In this document: piece after piece, positions 15,801 through 27,800 of the stretch | How the letters are laid out: every line of letters begins with the position of its first letter | Numbering within the stretch: position 1 is the first letter of the stretch | NCBI GenBank assembly: GCA_963696385.1 | Contig: CAVOKF010000003.1 | Location: 320,001-384,000, forward strand | Reading direction: 5' to 3' | DNA: 64,000 nucleotides | DNA from: an uncultured delta proteobacterium | Lineage (GTDB): Bacteria > Myxococcota_A > Polyangia > Polyangiales > Polyangiaceae | Position numbers: made by a program

Positions 15801-18800
15801 GCCCGAGCCGCAGCAGACGGTCGAGCGGCGGCTGGAGATTCGCAAGCCGACCGCCAGCGAAAAGCTGCTCGTCGCGTTCAAGGGCCCGGCGTTCGGCGAC
15901 GTGGATCACGCGGCGATGACCATTCTGAGCGAGGTGCTCTTTGGCGGCCGCGCCTCTCGCCTCTATCGATCCCTGGTCGTCGAACGAGAACTCGCTACGG
16001 ACCTGCGCGGCTGGGTCTCCACGTTTCGAGACCCGGGGCTGTTCGAGTGCTGGGCGACGGCGCGATCCGCGCACAGCGCGCTCGAAATCTTGCCCGTCTT
16101 CGAGGAGGCCTTTGCCCGCGTCCGTACGGACGTCGTGGCCGAGGAGGAATTGGCGCGCGCGAAATCGCGGCTCGAGCTGGGATCGTTGCAGCAGCTGGAG
16201 ACGGCAAGCGGCAAGGCCGAGCAGATCGGCTTCTTCGAGATAGTCCTCGGAGACCCGGCGCACGCATTCCGTCGGGTCGAGTCCTATCGGCGTACAACCG
16301 CGAGCGACTTGCGCAGGGTCGCACGACGCTACTTGGTCGATACCGCCCGCACCGTACTGCGGGTCGTTCCCGACGCCAGTGCAGCGCCCGCGCAGGCAGC
16401 CCAGTGAGCGTCGCGCGCCTTCAGACCCCCGAGCCGCTTCGATTCGATCTGGACGGCGGTGCTGTCGCCCTGCTCGAGCCGTCGCACGACGTGCCGCTCG
16501 TCTCGGTGGTCGTCGCGCTTCGCTGCGGCTCCGCGACCGACCCGTCGGAAAAGGCCGGCCTCGCCCGAATTGCCGTTCGAATGTTGAGGCGTGGGTGCGA
16601 AGGCCTCGTCTCCGAGGAGATCGATTTCCGGATCGACACCCTGGGCGCGGAAATGGCCGTCGATACGTCGCCCTCGACGGTGGGTATTCATGCGCAAGTC
16701 ATCGCGCGCCATGTCGATGCGTTCGTCGAACTTCTCGGCCGAATGCTTCGAGCTCCGACATTTCCGGATCACGAACTCGAGCGGCTCAAACGCGAAAGCA
16801 TCGCCGAAATCATTGAGGCACGCGACAACGATCGTGTGGTGGCTCAAAAGGCGATGCAACGGACCCTCTTCGAGGGTCACCCCTACGGGCGCAACGCCGG
16901 CGGAACGACGCGCACGATAGAGGCCATCACGCCCACCGATGTGCTCGACTTCTATCGCCGATACGTCGTCCAGGCAAACCTCGTCATCGGCATCGCCGGG
17001 GACGTGACACCCGACCGCGCGCCCTTGCTCGCGAGGCAACTCATCGCCGGCCTTCCGGCGGGGACGGCAGCGGTGGACCACGTCCCCGATCCCACGATGC
17101 GTCCGGGACGTCGGTTGCTGCTCGTGGACAAGCCCGAGCGAACGCAAACCCAGATTCTTCTTGGCACGCTAGGCACGTCCGCTCACGACGCCGACCACGT
17201 TTCGCTCGTCGTGGCGAACGCGGTCTTCGGCGGAACGTTCACGTCGCGGTTGATGAAGGAGATCCGTTCGAAACGCGGTTGGTCGTACGGCGCGAGCAGT
17301 CGAGCATCGGTGGATCGGCGGCGCCAGGCCTGGACGCTTTGGACCTTTCCTGCGGCACAGGACGCCGCACCCTGTTTGGCGCTGGCCATCGAACTGCTCG
17401 ACGCCTGGGTGAAAGCCGGAGTGCGCCCGGCGGAGGTGAACCTCGTCAAACGCTACCTGGTACGGTCGCACGCATTCGACGTCGACACGGCGACGAAGCG
17501 CTTGCATCAGGCGCTCGATCTGGAGCTTCTTGATTTGCCGCGAGACTACTTCAGCGGTTGGATCGAGCACGTACGGACCGTCACGTCCGCGTCGGCGAGC
17601 GCTGCTGTCGCGAGCCGCATTCGCACAGACAACTTGCTTGCCGTGGTCGTGGCCACTGCGTCGCAAGTGCTGGATCCTTTGCGATCGGCGGTGCCCGGAC
17701 TGGCGGAGGCCAGCGTCGTGCCGTTCCATGTCGAGTAACGGGAAGAAAAACGCCGAGGATCGGCCGGCCCCGGGCCCCTTCACCCACGCGGGGGAGAGAT
17801 CCAGCTCGTACCCACGCGCGGGGAGAGATCCAGCTCGTCCGATATCACTGCAGGTAATCTCGATCCCGGAGCTTCTTCGGTATGTACTCCTCGCTAATGA
17901 ACGAGATGCCCTTTGTCAACAATGAGTCGAGCTCCATCTTGAACCCATTTTGCACGATACCTTGAATTTCGCGCTGCCATTGTTTGGCTTTGAACCACGG
18001 GTACGCCTTCATCTGTTCGGCTCGCGCGAGGTCCTCTTTGGTGAGCCTGATTTCCGCGGCTTTGGGCATGGCAAATTTGCGATGATCGAGCGCGCTCATC
18101 CCGAGAAATCTCACATTCGGGACCGCCATACGCATCGACTCGTAAGCCAGATTGATACTCCCTTGCTTGAGGACCGAATAAATGTAAAGCCCCCATGGGT
18201 CGTTGTCGACAAGTGCATAAATAGGTACTTTTAGCTCAAGCGACATCCGCTGCATCAAGCGTCGCGCGCCGCGGCTGGCCTGCCCCTGAGTGGTCATCAG
18301 AATGCACTTGTGCTTTTTCCAAAAGCCGTCCTCGTTGAGTCGGTGGAAGATGGCGTCTTTTTCGACGAATAAGATGAAATCGGCGTTGCATCGAACGAAT
18401 TTGAGGGCGTCGTCTTCGCAAATGCTCGGGATCATCCAGCCGCCCCGGCCCATTCGGGCGAGATCAATTTCGTCGGGCCCGTCACGCACGACCATGTTGC
18501 CCACCAATCCACCTCGACGGTTGGCAAAGAGATGCAGCTCCTCGCGAAGTGCGTCGATCCCGACTTCGAGATCTTCGATGATCGGGTCGCTTTCACTCTG
18601 GTCCTCGAATGTATTTTCCTCCGAGTCCTCGAGCGTGTGCTTGGTCATGTAGAACATCTGGCGAATGCTGATGGTCTTGCCCTCGTCGATGAGCGTCTTG
18701 CATCCCTTCGCGACCAGAAAAGTCTGCATGAATTTACGCGCCATCGCGACGTTGAAAAATTCTCGCGATTGTGTCTTTTCCCCGAGCTCGATGATCCTCG

Positions 18801-24800: not shown

Positions 24801-27800
24801 TCGAGTGGGGCTTCCCACTCGAGCCCTTGCCCTACGAACGGCACAGCGACTTCGAGTTCACGATCGGGAATTTCTTCTAGTCGATTCGACCCGGCCCGAT
24901 TGGAACGCGCGCCGGGGCGATCGGATCCCTCGGGCTGCGTGCTAAACCATTGCGCGACTCATGGCCGAGAATCCGCCGACGCCAACCGCACCGCAGCAAA
25001 AGGTCCCCGTCTCGATCCAGGACGAGATGCGCACCTCGTACCTCGACTACGCGATGAGCGTCATCATCGGGCGCGCGATCCCCGACGTGCGCGATGGGCT
25101 CAAGCCGGTCCATCGACGCATCTTGTACAGCGCGTACGAGCAAGGATTGCTGCCGACCACCGGGTACCGCAAGAGCGCCACGATCGTCGGCGACGTTCTC
25201 GGCAAATACCATCCCCATGGCGACGCGTCCGTTTACGACGCACTGGTCCGTCTGGCGCAGGACTTTTCGATGCGCTACCCGCTCATCGACGGTCAAGGCA
25301 ATTACGGGTCGATCGACGGTGACCCGGCGGCGGCGTACCGATACACGGAAGCGCGTCTCACCAAGCTCGCCGTCGAGATCCTGAATGACCTCGACAAAGA
25401 ATGCGTCGACTTCGTCCCGAATTTTGACGACCGCCTCCAAGAACCCGTGGTCCTGCCGTCACGCGTCCCGAATCTGCTGGTCAACGGTACCAACGGCATC
25501 GCGGTCGGAATGGCGACGAACATCCCCCCGCACAACCTCGGCGAAGTCATCGACGCCACGGTCCACCTTCTCCGGCAGCCCAACGCCTCCCTCGACGATC
25601 TCATCCGTCTCGTACCGGGGCCGGACTTTCCGACGGCCGGGCTCATCTACGGGCGATCGGGCATCGAGTCGGCGTATCGAACCGGCCGCGGAGCCATCGT
25701 CATGCGCGCCCGCTTGGGTGTGGAGCGCTCCCCAGGACGCGGCGAGAAAGAGCAGATCGTCATCACCGAGATCCCGTACCAGGTGAATAAGGCCCGAGTC
25801 GCGGCGCGCATCTCGGAGCTCGTCCGCGAAAAGAAGCTTGATGGGGTCGGGGAGGTTCGCGACGAAAGCGATCGAGATGGCATACGACTCGTCGTCGAGC
25901 TGAAGAAAGACGTCATTCCGCAGATCGTCATCAATCAGCTCTACCGACAGACGGATCTGCAGACGAGTTACGGAGTCATCAACCTCGCGATCGTGCAAGG
26001 GCGCCCCGCGGTCTTGAATCTGAAAGAGACGCTCGAAGCGTTCGTGGGACACAGAAGAGAGGTCGTCGCGCGCCGCACGCGATACGAGCTTCGGCAAGCC
26101 GAGGGACAGCGTGAGATCGTGGAGGGTCTCGGCGTCGCCGTTTCCGAAGTCGATCTGGTCATCAAGACGATCCGGCAGTCCGCGGATCCGGAGACCGCGC
26201 GGACGGCGCTGATGACCCTGCCACTTTCGGGGCTCGAGGCCTTCGTTCGGCGAGCCGGACGGCCAGAGGGCGAGATCGAACTCGCGCGGCACCGGCAGCC
26301 TTATGCGCTATCCGATCGACAAGCCAAGGCGATCCTCGAGATGCGTCTTTCGCGACTCACCGGCCTCGAGCAGGAGAAGCTGGCTCACGAATACGCCGAA
26401 TTGTGCGATGCGATTGCTCGGCTTCGATCGATTCTCGCGAGTCCGGAGCTGCTCGACAACGTCATCGTCATGGAGCTCGAAGAGATCCGGACCAAATACG
26501 CCGACCGTCGGCGGACCGAGATCGTCGAGAACGATGCGGAGATCCTGGACGAGGATCTGATTCAAGAAGAGGACATGGTCGTGACGATCTCGCACGCCGG
26601 ATACATCAAGCGTACGAGCCCCAAAGATTATCGCGCTCAGAAGCGGGGCGGCCGAGGACGCATCGGAATGGAGGCGCGCGAGGAAGACTGGGTGACACAG
26701 CTCTTCGTCGCCTCGACGCACGCCTATGTGTTCTTCTTCAGCGACAAGGGGAAAGTCTACGTCAAGAAGGTCTACGAAATTCCCCTGGCCGCGCGTACGA
26801 GCAAGGGTCGTGCGATTGTCAATTTCATCGGCGTCGAAGCGGGCGAAAAGATTGCGGCCATCGTGGAAATTCCGAAGATCGAAAAGGGCAAGTTCGTCGT
26901 GACCCTTACGAAGGACGGACAGATCAAGAAAACGGAGCTCGACGAGTACGAGAACTTCCGCGAGAAGGGAATCATCGGCGTCAAAGTCGACGAAGGCGAC
27001 CGACTCCTTTCCGCCGCGCTCACCGACGGCACCCGCGACATTCTGATTGCCACCAAGGGCGGGCAGAGCATCCGCTTTCCCGAGGATCAATTTCGTCCGA
27101 TGGGCCGGGGGACCCATGGGGTCAAGGGGATCGACCTGAGCGAGGGCGACGAAGTGGTCGGCCTCGAGGTGTCGAGCGATGAGCGTTCGCTGGTGCTGGC
27201 CGTCTGCGCACACGGATACGGCAAACGCACGCAGATCGACGAGTTTCGAACCCAGAACCGTGGAGGCAAGGGAATCATCTTGATCGACGCCAGCGAACGC
27301 AATGGTCCGGTCGTGGGCGTCAAGCTGGTCAAGGAGAGCGATGAGGTCATGCTCATCACGGATCGCGGACAAACGCTGCGAACGCGCGTCGGCGAGATCC
27401 GTGAAACGGGCCGCAACGCCCAGGGCGTCAAACTGATGACGCTCGGCGATGGGGAGCGGATCGTCGCCGTAGAGCGAATGGCCGAGACGGGCGAAGCAGA
27501 CGATCTCGGCGGATCCACCGTACCCCCCGCACCGAGCGAGCTGAACTGAGTGGGATCGCCCGGTTCATCGTCCACGCCGAGGCTGTCGGCGAAGGAGCGC
27601 CGTGGTCGTGCTCGATCGGCCCCCGCTCTGGCAACGAATACGCTCCGTCGACTGGCTCGCCAACATCCGACGGCCCGCTGCGAACTGGATCACCGATCCA
27701 CGTTCGAGCTGCTCGTGTCCGTCGTGCTCTCAGCGCAAACGACGGACGTGGCGGTCAACAAGGTCACACCCAAATTGTTCGCCCGCTTTCCGGACGCGCA

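Follow-up and report, generated by a model that had tools for sequence, protein, structure and literature searches.

Topoisomerase VI and topoisomerase IV as alternative occupants of a chromosomal slot beside gyrA in the Polyangiaceae

Bacterial topoisomerase VI (Topo VI) has been reported in 17 families, including Polyangiaceae (Pajaroellobacter abortibovis), Anaeromyxobacteraceae and Vulgatibacteraceae (Allen and Maxwell, 2024; PMC11302465). In that account, the Polyangiaceae (Pajaroellobacter) are Topo VI-positive and Topo IV-negative, and it is proposed that Topo VI compensates for the missing Topo IV. The same article mentions unpublished work in which M. mazei Topo VI complemented an E. 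coli parE ts strain and, as far as it describes such cases, reports coexistence with a type IIA partner only in Pseudomonadota and Terrabacteria. In vitro, Topo VI is described as a preferential decatenase (McKie et al., 2022; PMC8837201). Among archaea, gyrase is described as having replaced Topo VI in Thermoplasmatales, and gyrase genes as adjoining Topo VI genes in Haloarchaea and Methanosarcina (Forterre and Gadelle, 2009; PMC2647321).

The window analysed here, a whole stretch of 64,000 nucleotides, belongs to a soil myxobacterium genome (G000; 6.9 Mb, 8 contigs, 96.4% complete). The genes that concern us are the following:

15603..17738, + strand: M16 peptidase ORF (Pfam Peptidase_M16 and M16_C), the conserved left flank of the putative decatenase slot
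17845..18966, - strand: top6A, Topo VI A subunit (type 1), 373 aa (TP6A_N, E 7e-16; Toprim, E 3e-57, full model)
18970..21006 (longest ORF), - strand: top6B, Topo VI B subunit (HATPase_c; Topo-VIb_trans, E 6e-52)
20905..22197, + strand: MFS transporter (MFS_1, E 1e-39), divergent from top6B, first gene of the right flank
22250..24880, + strand: bamA, Omp85 with five POTRA repeats (POTRA, E 2e-58; Omp85, E 3e-57)
24961..27549, + strand: gyrA (DNA_topoisoIV, E 8e-157; six GyrA C-terminal blades)
27550..28419, + strand: endonuclease III, nth (HhH-GPD, HHH, EndoIII 4Fe-4S motif), where the conserved right flank ends

Both Topo VI subunits are encoded 4 kb from gyrA, as the first-pass annotation had stated, and their genes are intact with the expected Pfam domains. 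Alignment A1 shows Tyr106, Glu202 and the DxD pair (Asp254, Asp256) of Top6A to be invariant; among solved structures, S. shibatae 2zbk_A is the best relative of this subunit (E 9e-83). In Top6B, the N, G1 and G2 boxes of the GHKL fold align identically with those of M. mazei 2q2e_B (E 6e-141), and the protein ends in a long K/P/A-rich tail. Since the alignments of relatives begin only at residue 49-70, the true Top6B start is probably Met36 or Met47, at about 20901 or 20868. The Top6A start codon lies 3 bp from the Top6B stop, and top6B-top6A is therefore read as one operon. Metatranscriptome contigs from one study (runs X15 and X16) are 99-100% identical to top6A (17915-18183) and top6B (19071-19274, 20054-20281 and 20702-20968), with DNA carry-over possible. 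Judged from its sequence, the operon would encode an intact, expressed-looking type IIB topoisomerase. The GyrA sequence holds QKRGGRG, which we take to be a GyrA-box-like motif, and RYTE, presumably the motif with the catalytic Tyr.

The claim of a single gyrase without ParC/ParE was borne out: profile searches of G000 gave one PF00521 match, the window gyrA, which is the sole GyrA/ParC-family gene, and one PF00204 match, gyrB on contig C4, and neither search found ParC or ParE in this 96.4%-complete genome. As for other topoisomerases, G000 has two type IA genes, which could unlink DNA too. The sister species G122 carries a stand-alone Top6A paralogue (L270:5423-6715) that was not found in G000.

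Top6A, PF00521 (GyrA/ParC) and PF00204 (GyrB/ParE) matches were then surveyed in 151 Polyangiaceae genomes, many of them metagenome-assembled. A strong Top6A match is present in 45 genomes, 43 with the window's type 1 (sequence-confirmed for 34) and two with a divergent type (G066 and G072, which correspond to the two distant Top6A matches of the earlier survey); two more carriers were seen at contig ends, G124 with a Top6A fragment and G148 with Top6B (L132). All 43 type-1 genomes have at most one GyrA/ParC-family gene, which extends the earlier observation of a single such gene to a larger sample. The two PF00521 matches of G126 are a single gene split across two contigs, and in G146 (83% complete) no gene of this family was found. 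ParE, missing from the earlier count, was not found by PF00204 search in any of the 43; second matches are a split gyrB in G008 and a partial one of 28 bits in a 382-aa frame in G037. No Topo VI was found in 104 genomes, and 99 of these show evidence of Topo IV: 95 have at least two PF00521 matches, in line with the earlier report of extra GyrA/ParC genes, and four (G044, G074, G109 and G150) have one PF00521 match and a second, ParE-like PF00204 gene. The "second gene" is a match count in most of these genomes, and ParC was sequence-checked in 42. Neither system was found in the remaining five (G001, G016, G090, G092 and G102; completeness 59-90%), so that none of the 151 genomes that is more than 90% complete has neither, and type-1 Topo VI and Topo IV occur together in 0 of 151.

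The two cassettes share a slot that precedes (MFS-)bamA-gyrA on its upstream side and is conserved on either flank. In the window, the order is M16, leftward top6A and top6B, then rightward MFS, bamA and gyrA; in G057, it is M16, 4.9 kb, then rightward parC, parE, MFS, bamA and gyrA, and the right-hand order of G051 is that of G057. The M16 flank also adjoins top6A in the relatives L043, L045 and L049, and the parC-parE cassette region in G057. Many Topo VI-positive loci have the MFS gene between the cassette and bamA, as do G051 and G057, which bear Topo IV. Another 21 Topo VI-negative loci have parC-parE next to this block, either immediately upstream of bamA-gyrA or immediately downstream of gyrA-nth. 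Linkage of bamA to gyrA is a conserved trait of Polyangiaceae, not observed in any of 11 outgroup genomes, and nth follows gyrA in most Polyangiaceae loci. Topo VI is retained in the slot in a closed, reduced 1.8-Mb genome (G026) and in closed genomes of 12-13.6 Mb (G071 and G128). No pseudogene remnant of a lost cassette was found in either direction, and no swap was caught midway.

On a maximum-likelihood tree of GyrA (110 rows; a single gene, linked to the slot), the Topo VI/Topo IV state changes at least nine times in Polyangiaceae, also within genera: by the labels of the tool, g58 (G057 versus G120) and g60 (G059 and G121 versus G349) are polymorphic. The tree offers seven independent, well-supported pairs whose members differ in Topo VI; Topo IV is opposite in 6.9 of the seven on average (sign test, p about 0.016). 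A single-gene tree of GyrB, which is unlinked to the slot, has 6 changes among 20 rows. In it, G057 (Topo IV) and G120 (Topo VI) are sisters (99/99), and the sister of the window's own genus is G021, which has Topo IV (96/97). Five Topo IV genomes lie nested among Topo VI genomes, and both GyrB (p-AU 9e-5) and GyrA (AU, p 0.025) reject their union in a single clade, the groups having been named only once the trees had been seen. The absence of genomes with both type-1 Topo VI and Topo IV, the opposite-direction contrasts and the common slot together support the view that, within Polyangiaceae, the two enzymes behave as interchangeable.

Type-1 Top6A of Polyangiaceae is monophyletic (support 99) with an unrooted topology that agrees with the GyrA clades, and its identity across the family (61-77%) tracks that of GyrA (64-81%). 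ParC of G051 is sister to that of an e1-clade genome (support 100), and the distance between the two genomes is 0.23 for ParC and 0.32 for GyrA, a ratio of 0.71 against the usual value of about 1.25; position and ratio indicate that the G051 Topo IV cassette was transferred from another Polyangiaceae clade. Because ParC and Top6A both look old within the family and the state changed at least nine times, the history is better explained by ancestral coexistence and later reciprocal sorting, plus one or more transfers, than by one takeover. Thus the earlier idea that Topo VI displaced Topo IV in a large clade stands as regards two interchangeable enzymes, but not as one displacement.

The either/or pattern, which had been called strict, holds for type 1 and fails for the second type. 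G066 and G072 carry Topo IV together with a type 2 Topo VI elsewhere in the genome (Top6A 33-34% identical to the window's), so Topo VI as such is compatible with Topo IV. In the Myxococcota families f29 (10 of 11 Topo VI-positive genomes) and f22 (3 of 9), type 2 accompanies a third, divergent type IIA pair. Other families of the phylum show one PF00521 match and no Top6A (f26, 14/14; f27, 5/5; f24, 2/2; f18, 12/23). When all four Pfam markers were checked, 5/5 such genomes, including closed ones of 5.2 and 6.0 Mb, had a single PF00204 match and lacked Top6B. Members of the phylum can therefore do without a dedicated decatenase, and the claim that the lineage depends on a type IIB enzyme for the Topo IV job is not supported.

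We consider it probable that Topo VI is here a dedicated decatenase and positive-supercoil relaxase replacing ParC/ParE, alternating with Topo IV in one niche through repeated sorting. The top6B-top6A product would most likely be active and supply the decatenation and positive-supercoil relaxation that ParC/ParE supplies in sister lineages, and it may be essential. The two systems would then be alternative occupants of one functional niche, and usually of a single place on the chromosome just upstream of (MFS-)bamA-gyrA-nth, with one kept per Polyangiaceae genome; both cassettes would be old in the family, with lineages settling on either of them at least nine times, and with at least one, the Topo IV cassette of G051, acquired from another Polyangiaceae clade. 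It is unlikely that Topo VI does another job, such as the relaxation of positive supercoils ahead of forks or a specialised task, while gyrase and type IA enzymes decatenate and Topo IV was lost for unrelated reasons. The gyrase-only families (f26, f27 and the five genomes checked for four markers), the coexistence of type 2 with Topo IV or a third type IIA pair, and the two type IA enzymes of G000 would agree with this, but unrelated losses would not give 0 of 151 genomes with both systems, none above 90% completeness with neither, seven opposite-direction contrasts and a common slot.

Type IIB enzymes are structurally distinct from ParC/ParE, and myxobacteria are known to make inhibitors of gyrase and Topo IV; a type IIB decatenase might thus have been kept because it is insensitive to the type IIA poisons of myxobacteria and their neighbours, Topo IV then becoming dispensable. 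We regard such drug evasion as very unlikely, since gyrase, the main target, is still there and unduplicated, the swap goes in both directions, and no resistance or biosynthesis gene linked to the slot was seen within the window. The concern that one or two old replacements were merely inherited by relatives, leaving the pattern to tell little about function, draws on the relatedness of the genomes: one GyrA clade of 39 rows is mostly Topo VI-positive, and 47 rows in two clades almost all have Topo IV. The changes on the GyrA and the unlinked GyrB tree, the polymorphic genera and the rejection of a single nested clade by both genes make it highly improbable. Many of the compared genomes are metagenome-assembled, and archaeal-type genes might be foreign to this bacterium; with top6B-top6A on one contig with bamA-gyrA in the window and at least 20 relatives, among them three with closed genomes (1.8, 12.2 and 13.6 Mb), the chance of a binning or contamination artefact is practically negligible.

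The preferred reading, a Topo VI that alternates with Topo IV, concerns a known kind of system. The archaeal enzymes (S. shibatae 2ZBK, M. mazei 2Q2E and M. jannaschii Top6A 1D3Y) share domain order and catalytic residues with that of the window, whose A subunit most resembles the Saccharolobus/DPANN kind and whose B subunit most resembles the Methanosarcina kind, but with the long K/P/A-rich tail where M. mazei Top6B is described as having a C-terminal domain (PMC11302465). Mini-A/Topo VIII relatives, which are stand-alone Top6A-like proteins, have the TP6A_N and Toprim domains in common with the window Top6A but lack its adjacent, translationally coupled Top6B. Bacterial Topo IV would do the same job (decatenation, relaxation) from the same position next to bamA-gyrA in Polyangiaceae, although it belongs to an unrelated fold family (type IIA against type IIB). 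The archaeal cases (PMC2647321) are, as described there, earlier examples of the displacement of a type II topoisomerase by another and of Topo VI-gyrase gene linkage; in them gyrase itself was involved, whereas Polyangiaceae keep gyrase and its partner alternates repeatedly. The closest precedent is the bacterial Topo VI of Allen and Maxwell (2024), likewise a two-subunit enzyme with gyrase present, Topo IV absent and a compensating role proposed. Their report of Topo VI-positive, Topo IV-negative Polyangiaceae pre-empts the suggestion of a first bacterial lineage, and their two bacterial Top6A clusters (near DPANN and near Methanococcales) match types 1 and 2 here. Their study, as it is described, took one species per family without synteny; the present comparison is within a family and includes the slot. 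What it adds is the patchwork of at least nine switches within one family, the common slot beside gyrA, type 2 beside type IIA enzymes within Myxococcota, and gyrase-only Myxococcota families. Polyangiaceae thus offer a new fine-scale natural experiment, in which Topo VI at Topo IV's spot beside the gyrase gene fits the idea, as published, that both enzymes can do one job.

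The Topo VI genes of the window are part of a region of 17.8-28.4 kb that also holds bamA and gyrA. The features of this region are as follows:

Left end of the region, before top6A, plus strand: M16 peptidase (Pfam)
17845-18966, minus strand: top6A, with TP6A_N (E 7e-16) and Toprim PF21180 (positions 1-170 of 170, E 3e-57)
18970-21006, minus strand: top6B, with HATPase_c (E 1e-6) and Topo-VIb_trans (E 6e-52, positions 1-158 of 159)
20905-22197, plus strand: MFS transporter, an ORF overlapped by the longest top6B ORF
22250-24880, plus strand: bamA
24961-27549, plus strand: gyrA, with six DNA_gyraseA_C repeats and the motif QKRGGRG
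27550-28419, plus strand: endonuclease III (nth)

The stop codon of top6B (18970-18972) and the start codon of top6A (18964-18966) lie 3 bp apart on the same strand, and the two genes therefore form a B-then-A operon, which is transcribed divergently from MFS-bamA-gyrA. The B-A order is kept in all relatives examined. Some Top6A genes lie in open frames of 950-1041 aa, which raised the idea of a B-A fusion; this was rejected, as the high GC content of the DNA gives rise to overlapping frames and each of the two genes has a frame of its own. The Top6A of the window has a winged-helix (5Y-CAP) domain containing Tyr106, which we take to be the catalytic tyrosine by homology to Spo11 and the M. 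jannaschii enzyme, and a Toprim domain with the acidic Glu202 and the metal-binding DxD motif (Asp254, Asp256). These four residues and Arg102 are invariant in an alignment (A1) of the window protein with six other bacterial Top6A of both types found here, the type of the window (type 1) and a divergent one (type 2). Residues 31-372 of Top6A align with S. shibatae 2zbk_A. Top6B has the N, G1 and G2 boxes of GHKL ATPases ([15 protein letters not shown], GQQGIGIS), identical or near-identical to those of M. mazei 2q2e_B (E 6e-141), with which the protein forms an unbroken alignment over residues 161-586 that takes in the transducer and presumably the H2TH region before it. The longest top6B ORF, of 678 aa, begins at a TTG and runs into the MFS ORF; since the alignment of its relatives begins only at residue 49-70, translation probably begins at Met36 or Met47. 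Over top6A (window 18000-18999) the GC content drops to 0.557, against 0.61-0.69 around it (flanks ~0.63). Two metatranscriptome runs of a single study yielded contigs with 99-100% identity to the window that lie on top6A, top6B, gyrA, bamA and the M16 gene, which is consistent with transcription of these genes and also with DNA carried over into the RNA libraries.

The first-pass annotation had described a single gyrase and no ParC/ParE in this genome, and this is borne out: the assembly (6.94 Mb, 8 contigs, 96.4% complete) gives one match to the GyrA/ParC-family marker PF00521, which is the gyrA of the window, and one to the GyrB/ParE marker PF00204, which is gyrB on another contig. The QKRGGRG of the window GyrA is presumably a variant of the GyrA box, whose consensus we take to be QRRGGKG. 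Together with the six C-terminal blades, this motif identifies the gene as a gyrase subunit and not as ParC. The GyrA box was the classifier used by Allen & Maxwell (PMC11302465). The genome further encodes two type IA topoisomerases; one of the matches, outside the window (C3:528546-529904), lies inside a 1525-aa open frame that is unusually long for TopA or TopB.

A total of 151 Polyangiaceae genomes (150 and that of the window) were scanned for the Top6A Toprim domain, GyrA/ParC and GyrB/ParE. A strong Top6A match was found in 45 of them, besides a fragment at a contig end in G124 and a sub-threshold match in G016. Two of the 45 (G066, G072) have a different Topo VI, whose Top6A is 33-34% and Top6B 45-46% identical to those of the window and whose genes sit away from gyrA. 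Type 1 is present in 43 genomes, and its type was verified by sequence in 34. Among these 43, one PF00521 match was counted in 41, none in G146 (83% complete) and two in G126, where both matches belong to one gene split over two contigs. The PF00204 count was one in 38, zero in three and two in G008 and G037; the former has a frameshifted or split gyrB, and the second match of the latter is partial and reaches only 28 bits in a 382-aa frame, compared with 163-179 bits for real ParE-like genes. At least two PF00521 matches were counted in 95 of the 104 remaining genomes, and four of seven genomes with one match (G044, G074, G109, G150) hold a second, ParE-like PF00204 gene. One genome counted as Top6A-negative, G148, has a Top6B at a contig end adjoining MFS-bamA-gyrA (locus L132). 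Neither system was seen in five genomes (G001, G016, G090, G092, G102), which are 59-90% complete.

Type-1 Topo VI and Topo IV occurred together in none of the 151 genomes, and no genome of more than 90% completeness lacked both systems, Topo IV being scored largely by match counts. The strict either/or pattern proposed in the first-pass annotation therefore holds for type-1 Topo VI, but not for type 2, which is found alongside Topo IV. The three GyrA/ParC matches given there for some genomes correspond to GyrA and a single divergent ParC that Pfam matches in two pieces. The two PF00521 matches of G414, from a sister family, come from one GyrA with an in-frame insertion of ~500 aa that looks like an intein and has Pfam positions 82 and 80 on either side (L137, G414:C43, 4661-8740; one 1423-aa open frame). 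At locus L263 (G062:C763, 3444-8861), a second GyrA-like fragment (Pfam positions 1-285, E 6.5e-122) comes after parC-parE and extends up to the end of the contig; the main gyrA of G062 is on another contig, and the fragment may result from duplication, contamination (5%) or faulty assembly.

The two systems also share a chromosomal slot upstream of (MFS-)bamA-gyrA. The gyrA neighbourhoods of 100 loci, about one per genus, were annotated by tblastn with the window proteins and the ParC/ParE pair of G011. The recurrent order in Topo VI-positive genera is top6A< top6B< (MFS>) bamA> gyrA> nth> (arrowheads give the strand), also in the closed genomes G026 (1.8 Mb) and G071 (12.2 Mb). In many genera without type-1 Topo VI, the same place upstream of bamA-gyrA is taken by parC> parE> (G011, G147, G072, G004, G007, G034, G054, G081, G129, G051, G057) or by the inverted parE< parC< (G006, G009, G014, G020, G061, G084, G085), while in G125, G066 and G022 the pair lies just downstream of gyrA-nth. 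The window has the order M16a-M16b, top6A-top6B, MFS, bamA, gyrA, and G057 has M16a-M16b, 4.9 kb, parC-parE, MFS, bamA, gyrA, so that the flanks on both sides are common to the two states. Linkage of bamA to gyrA was not observed in the 11 genomes examined from neighbouring families. No Top6 remnant was detected in the slots of G051, G057, G059 and G019, and no ParC/ParE remnant in G120 and G349; the sole match of this search was a generic GHKL-like one in G059. In G059 (L096, L276, L260) and G019 (L065, L277, L261), insertions of 11-16 kb split the otherwise compact parC/MFS/bamA/gyrA block, and the slot is tolerant of large insertions.

A single takeover of Topo IV by Topo VI in one large clade, as had been suggested for the family, does not agree with the gyrase trees. 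A maximum-likelihood GyrA tree was built with 110 rows, including 11 outgroup genomes, from genomes with listed GyrA coordinates and an HSP of at least 450 aa. The Polyangiaceae are monophyletic on it, with type-1 Topo VI scattered over four positions: G039, G079 and G133; G049, G114, G036, G077 and G132; the pair G008 and G095, within a Topo IV clade of 26 rows; and a clade of 39 rows, in which six Topo IV-only genomes are nested (G019, G021, G051, G057, G059, G062). Parsimony gives at least nine state changes within the family. Well-supported branches provide seven independent pairs with contrasting Topo VI states, and Topo IV contrasts in the opposite direction in 6.9 of the seven on average (sign test p ~0.016). 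Because gyrA is linked to the slot, the test was repeated with the unlinked GyrB in 22 genomes (20 ingroup rows), which gave six changes among the ingroup rows and placed the Topo IV genome G057 as sister to the Topo VI genome G120 (99/99) and the Topo IV genome G021 as sister to the window's own genus (96/97). Grouping the five genomes that have a nested ParC of one kind ('type b') into one clade is rejected with GyrB (p-AU 9e-5) and, on a 43-row subset, with GyrA (p 0.025), in both cases with groups named after the trees had been seen. Within two of the genera labelled by the tool, g58 (G057 against G120) and g60 (G059 and G121 against G349), both states occur. The complementary pattern thus recurs over independent events for type 1 only, since type 2 is found with Topo IV.

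The trees of the cassettes themselves bear on how these changes came about. The type-1 Top6A of Polyangiaceae is monophyletic (48 rows, support 99), and its unrooted split, with the two basal clades on one side and G008/G095 and the 39-row clade on the other, agrees with the GyrA tree, which suggests mostly vertical descent. ParC falls into two groups, X and Y. Group Y contains the neighbouring families f2-f5, the Polyangiaceae clades d and b and, placed with clade b (100), a monophyletic set (100) of the five nested 'type b' ParCs. The ParC of the 26-row clade makes up group X, which has a long branch to itself outside Y. The ParC of G051 lies inside X beside that of G020 (100), and since the ParC distance of the two genomes (0.23) is smaller than their GyrA distance (0.32), this points to acquisition of parC by transfer. 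A recent horizontal spread through the Topo VI clade was also considered for the 'type b' ParCs. Their median ParC/GyrA distance ratio of 1.28 equals that of the other clades (1.25-1.35 in e1, d and b), which gives no support to a recent spread; with a divergence as GyrA predicts, these ParCs look as old as the 39-row clade, as does its Topo VI. From these single-gene trees we infer as the simplest reading that the ancestors, in a radiation whose internodes were short, would have had both systems together and that the lineages would then have been sorted reciprocally to one system, with occasional cassette transfer.

Outside the family the situation is different. Among 301 Myxococcota genomes (completeness at least 85%), Top6A was found in 63. 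It is of type 2 in 18 of 18 loci examined outside the order (31-33% identical to the window), and family f6 of the same order has type 1 (55-56% identical). Type-2 Topo VI is accompanied by a second, very divergent and short GyrA/ParC-like gene in 10 of the 11 Topo VI-positive genomes of family f29 and in three of nine in f22. Five of these genes were examined (E 1e-101 to 1e-106), with frames of 664-702 aa; the loci include L264 (G205:C4, 4435-6232) and L265 (G319:C54), and in G205 a ParE/GyrB-like gene is located upstream. Beside gyrase and type-2 Topo VI, this would make a third type II topoisomerase in these families. A single PF00521 match without any Top6A was found in 14/14 genomes of f26, 5/5 of f27, 2/2 of f24 and 12/23 of f18, and the five gyrase-only genomes checked, two of them closed, all have one PF00204 match and no Top6B. 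The rule of exactly one decatenase is therefore one of Polyangiaceae and not of the phylum.

The two types differ in the affinities of their A subunits. The best solved relative of type-1 Top6A is that of S. shibatae (2zbk_A, E 9e-83, with M. mazei at only 6e-39), and its named relatives (52-61% identical) include Anaeromyxobacter, Acidobacteriota, Planctomycetota and DPANN archaea. For type 2 it is M. jannaschii 1d3y (E 9e-110). The Top6B proteins of both types have M. mazei as best solved relative and are ~50% identical to each other. Differing Top6A affinities (closest to S. shibatae and DPANN archaea in type 1, to M. jannaschii in type 2) with a common Top6B affinity hint that the A subunit may have been exchanged independently of B. 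A stand-alone Top6A-like protein of 430 aa (TP6A_N and Toprim, E 8e-40) with no adjoining Top6B is encoded in G122, of the window's genus (L270, 5423-6715), flanked downstream by a DUF924 gene and, ~2.3 kb upstream, by a MerR/GyrI-like regulator ORF; several adjoining ORFs gave no Pfam family. It is probably of the Mini-A kind, a stand-alone type IIB A subunit. Second Top6A matches also occur in G104, G111, G126, G037 and G025, and the genome of the window has no stand-alone Top6A.

A further difference concerns the end of Top6B. The last ~80 residues of the window protein (C-terminus at 18970-19210) are a low-complexity tail rich in K, P and A. A long tail of this kind followed by the ending (G)(E/K/R/V/D)QL(S/T/E/K/D)L(I/V/A) was found in 11 of 20 Polyangiaceae Top6B, including those of L045, L051, L041, L047, L119 and L143, and the window protein ends in a degenerate form, RQQLHVPE. 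Tail and motif are absent in 17 of 17 type-2 Top6B of other families and in that of G072, which end right after the transducer. The QLxL(I/V)-type end resembles a sliding-clamp docking peptide, a resemblance that we regard as a lead.

These observations may be combined in one reading. A dedicated decatenase would be obligatory in Polyangiaceae, for which Topo IV and a clamp-tethered type-1 Topo VI would be fully interchangeable as alternative cassettes in one locus by gyrA. An ancestor with both would have given rise to lineages sorted at least nine times to exactly one, with occasional cassette exchange between lineages, and the sister species G057 and G120, for example, would amount to isogenic-like natural swaps of type IIA for type IIB. 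The conserved C-terminal QLxL(I/V) on the tail of type-1 Top6B, which type 2 lacks, would serve to dock the enzyme on the sliding clamp, and this would explain why type 1 alone excludes Topo IV. Taken whole, as one claim, this reading is tentative and we hold it to be somewhat doubtful.

The comparative pattern itself gives real and testable support to the published hypothesis of Topo VI as a replacement decatenase. The Polyangiaceae are a repeated natural experiment, with close species differing only in a type IIA or type IIB enzyme beside gyrA and no reasonably complete genome with both type 1 and Topo IV or with neither; such natural pairs and the either/or pattern make functional equivalence directly testable. 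A replication function of the essential class can flip back and forth between unrelated enzymes. Caution is needed in generalising, as elsewhere in the phylum gyrase alone suffices and the other Topo VI type coexists with Topo IV.

Topo VI was noted in three bacteria by Forterre & Gadelle (2009, PMC2647321), where gyrase genes adjacent to Topo VI genes are also described in some archaea. Allen & Maxwell (2024, PMC11302465) list it in 17 bacterial families, one species each and Polyangiaceae among them, of which 10 are missing Topo IV. Topo VI is rationalised there as a replacement decatenase and its role in bacteria is stated as an open question; an unpublished complementation by M. mazei Topo VI, stated in the same paper, is the sole pointer to functional equivalence. 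Full-text literature searches, whose scope stopped short of subscription journals and the supplements of PMC11302465, turned up no account of the alternation inside the family, of the shared slot or of Myxococcota with gyrase alone. Types 1 and 2 match the two bacterial Top6A clusters of Allen & Maxwell. As Topo VI of Polyangiaceae is already catalogued there, the gene pair itself is a further case of a known bacterial kind, and the addition is the comparative pattern within the family.
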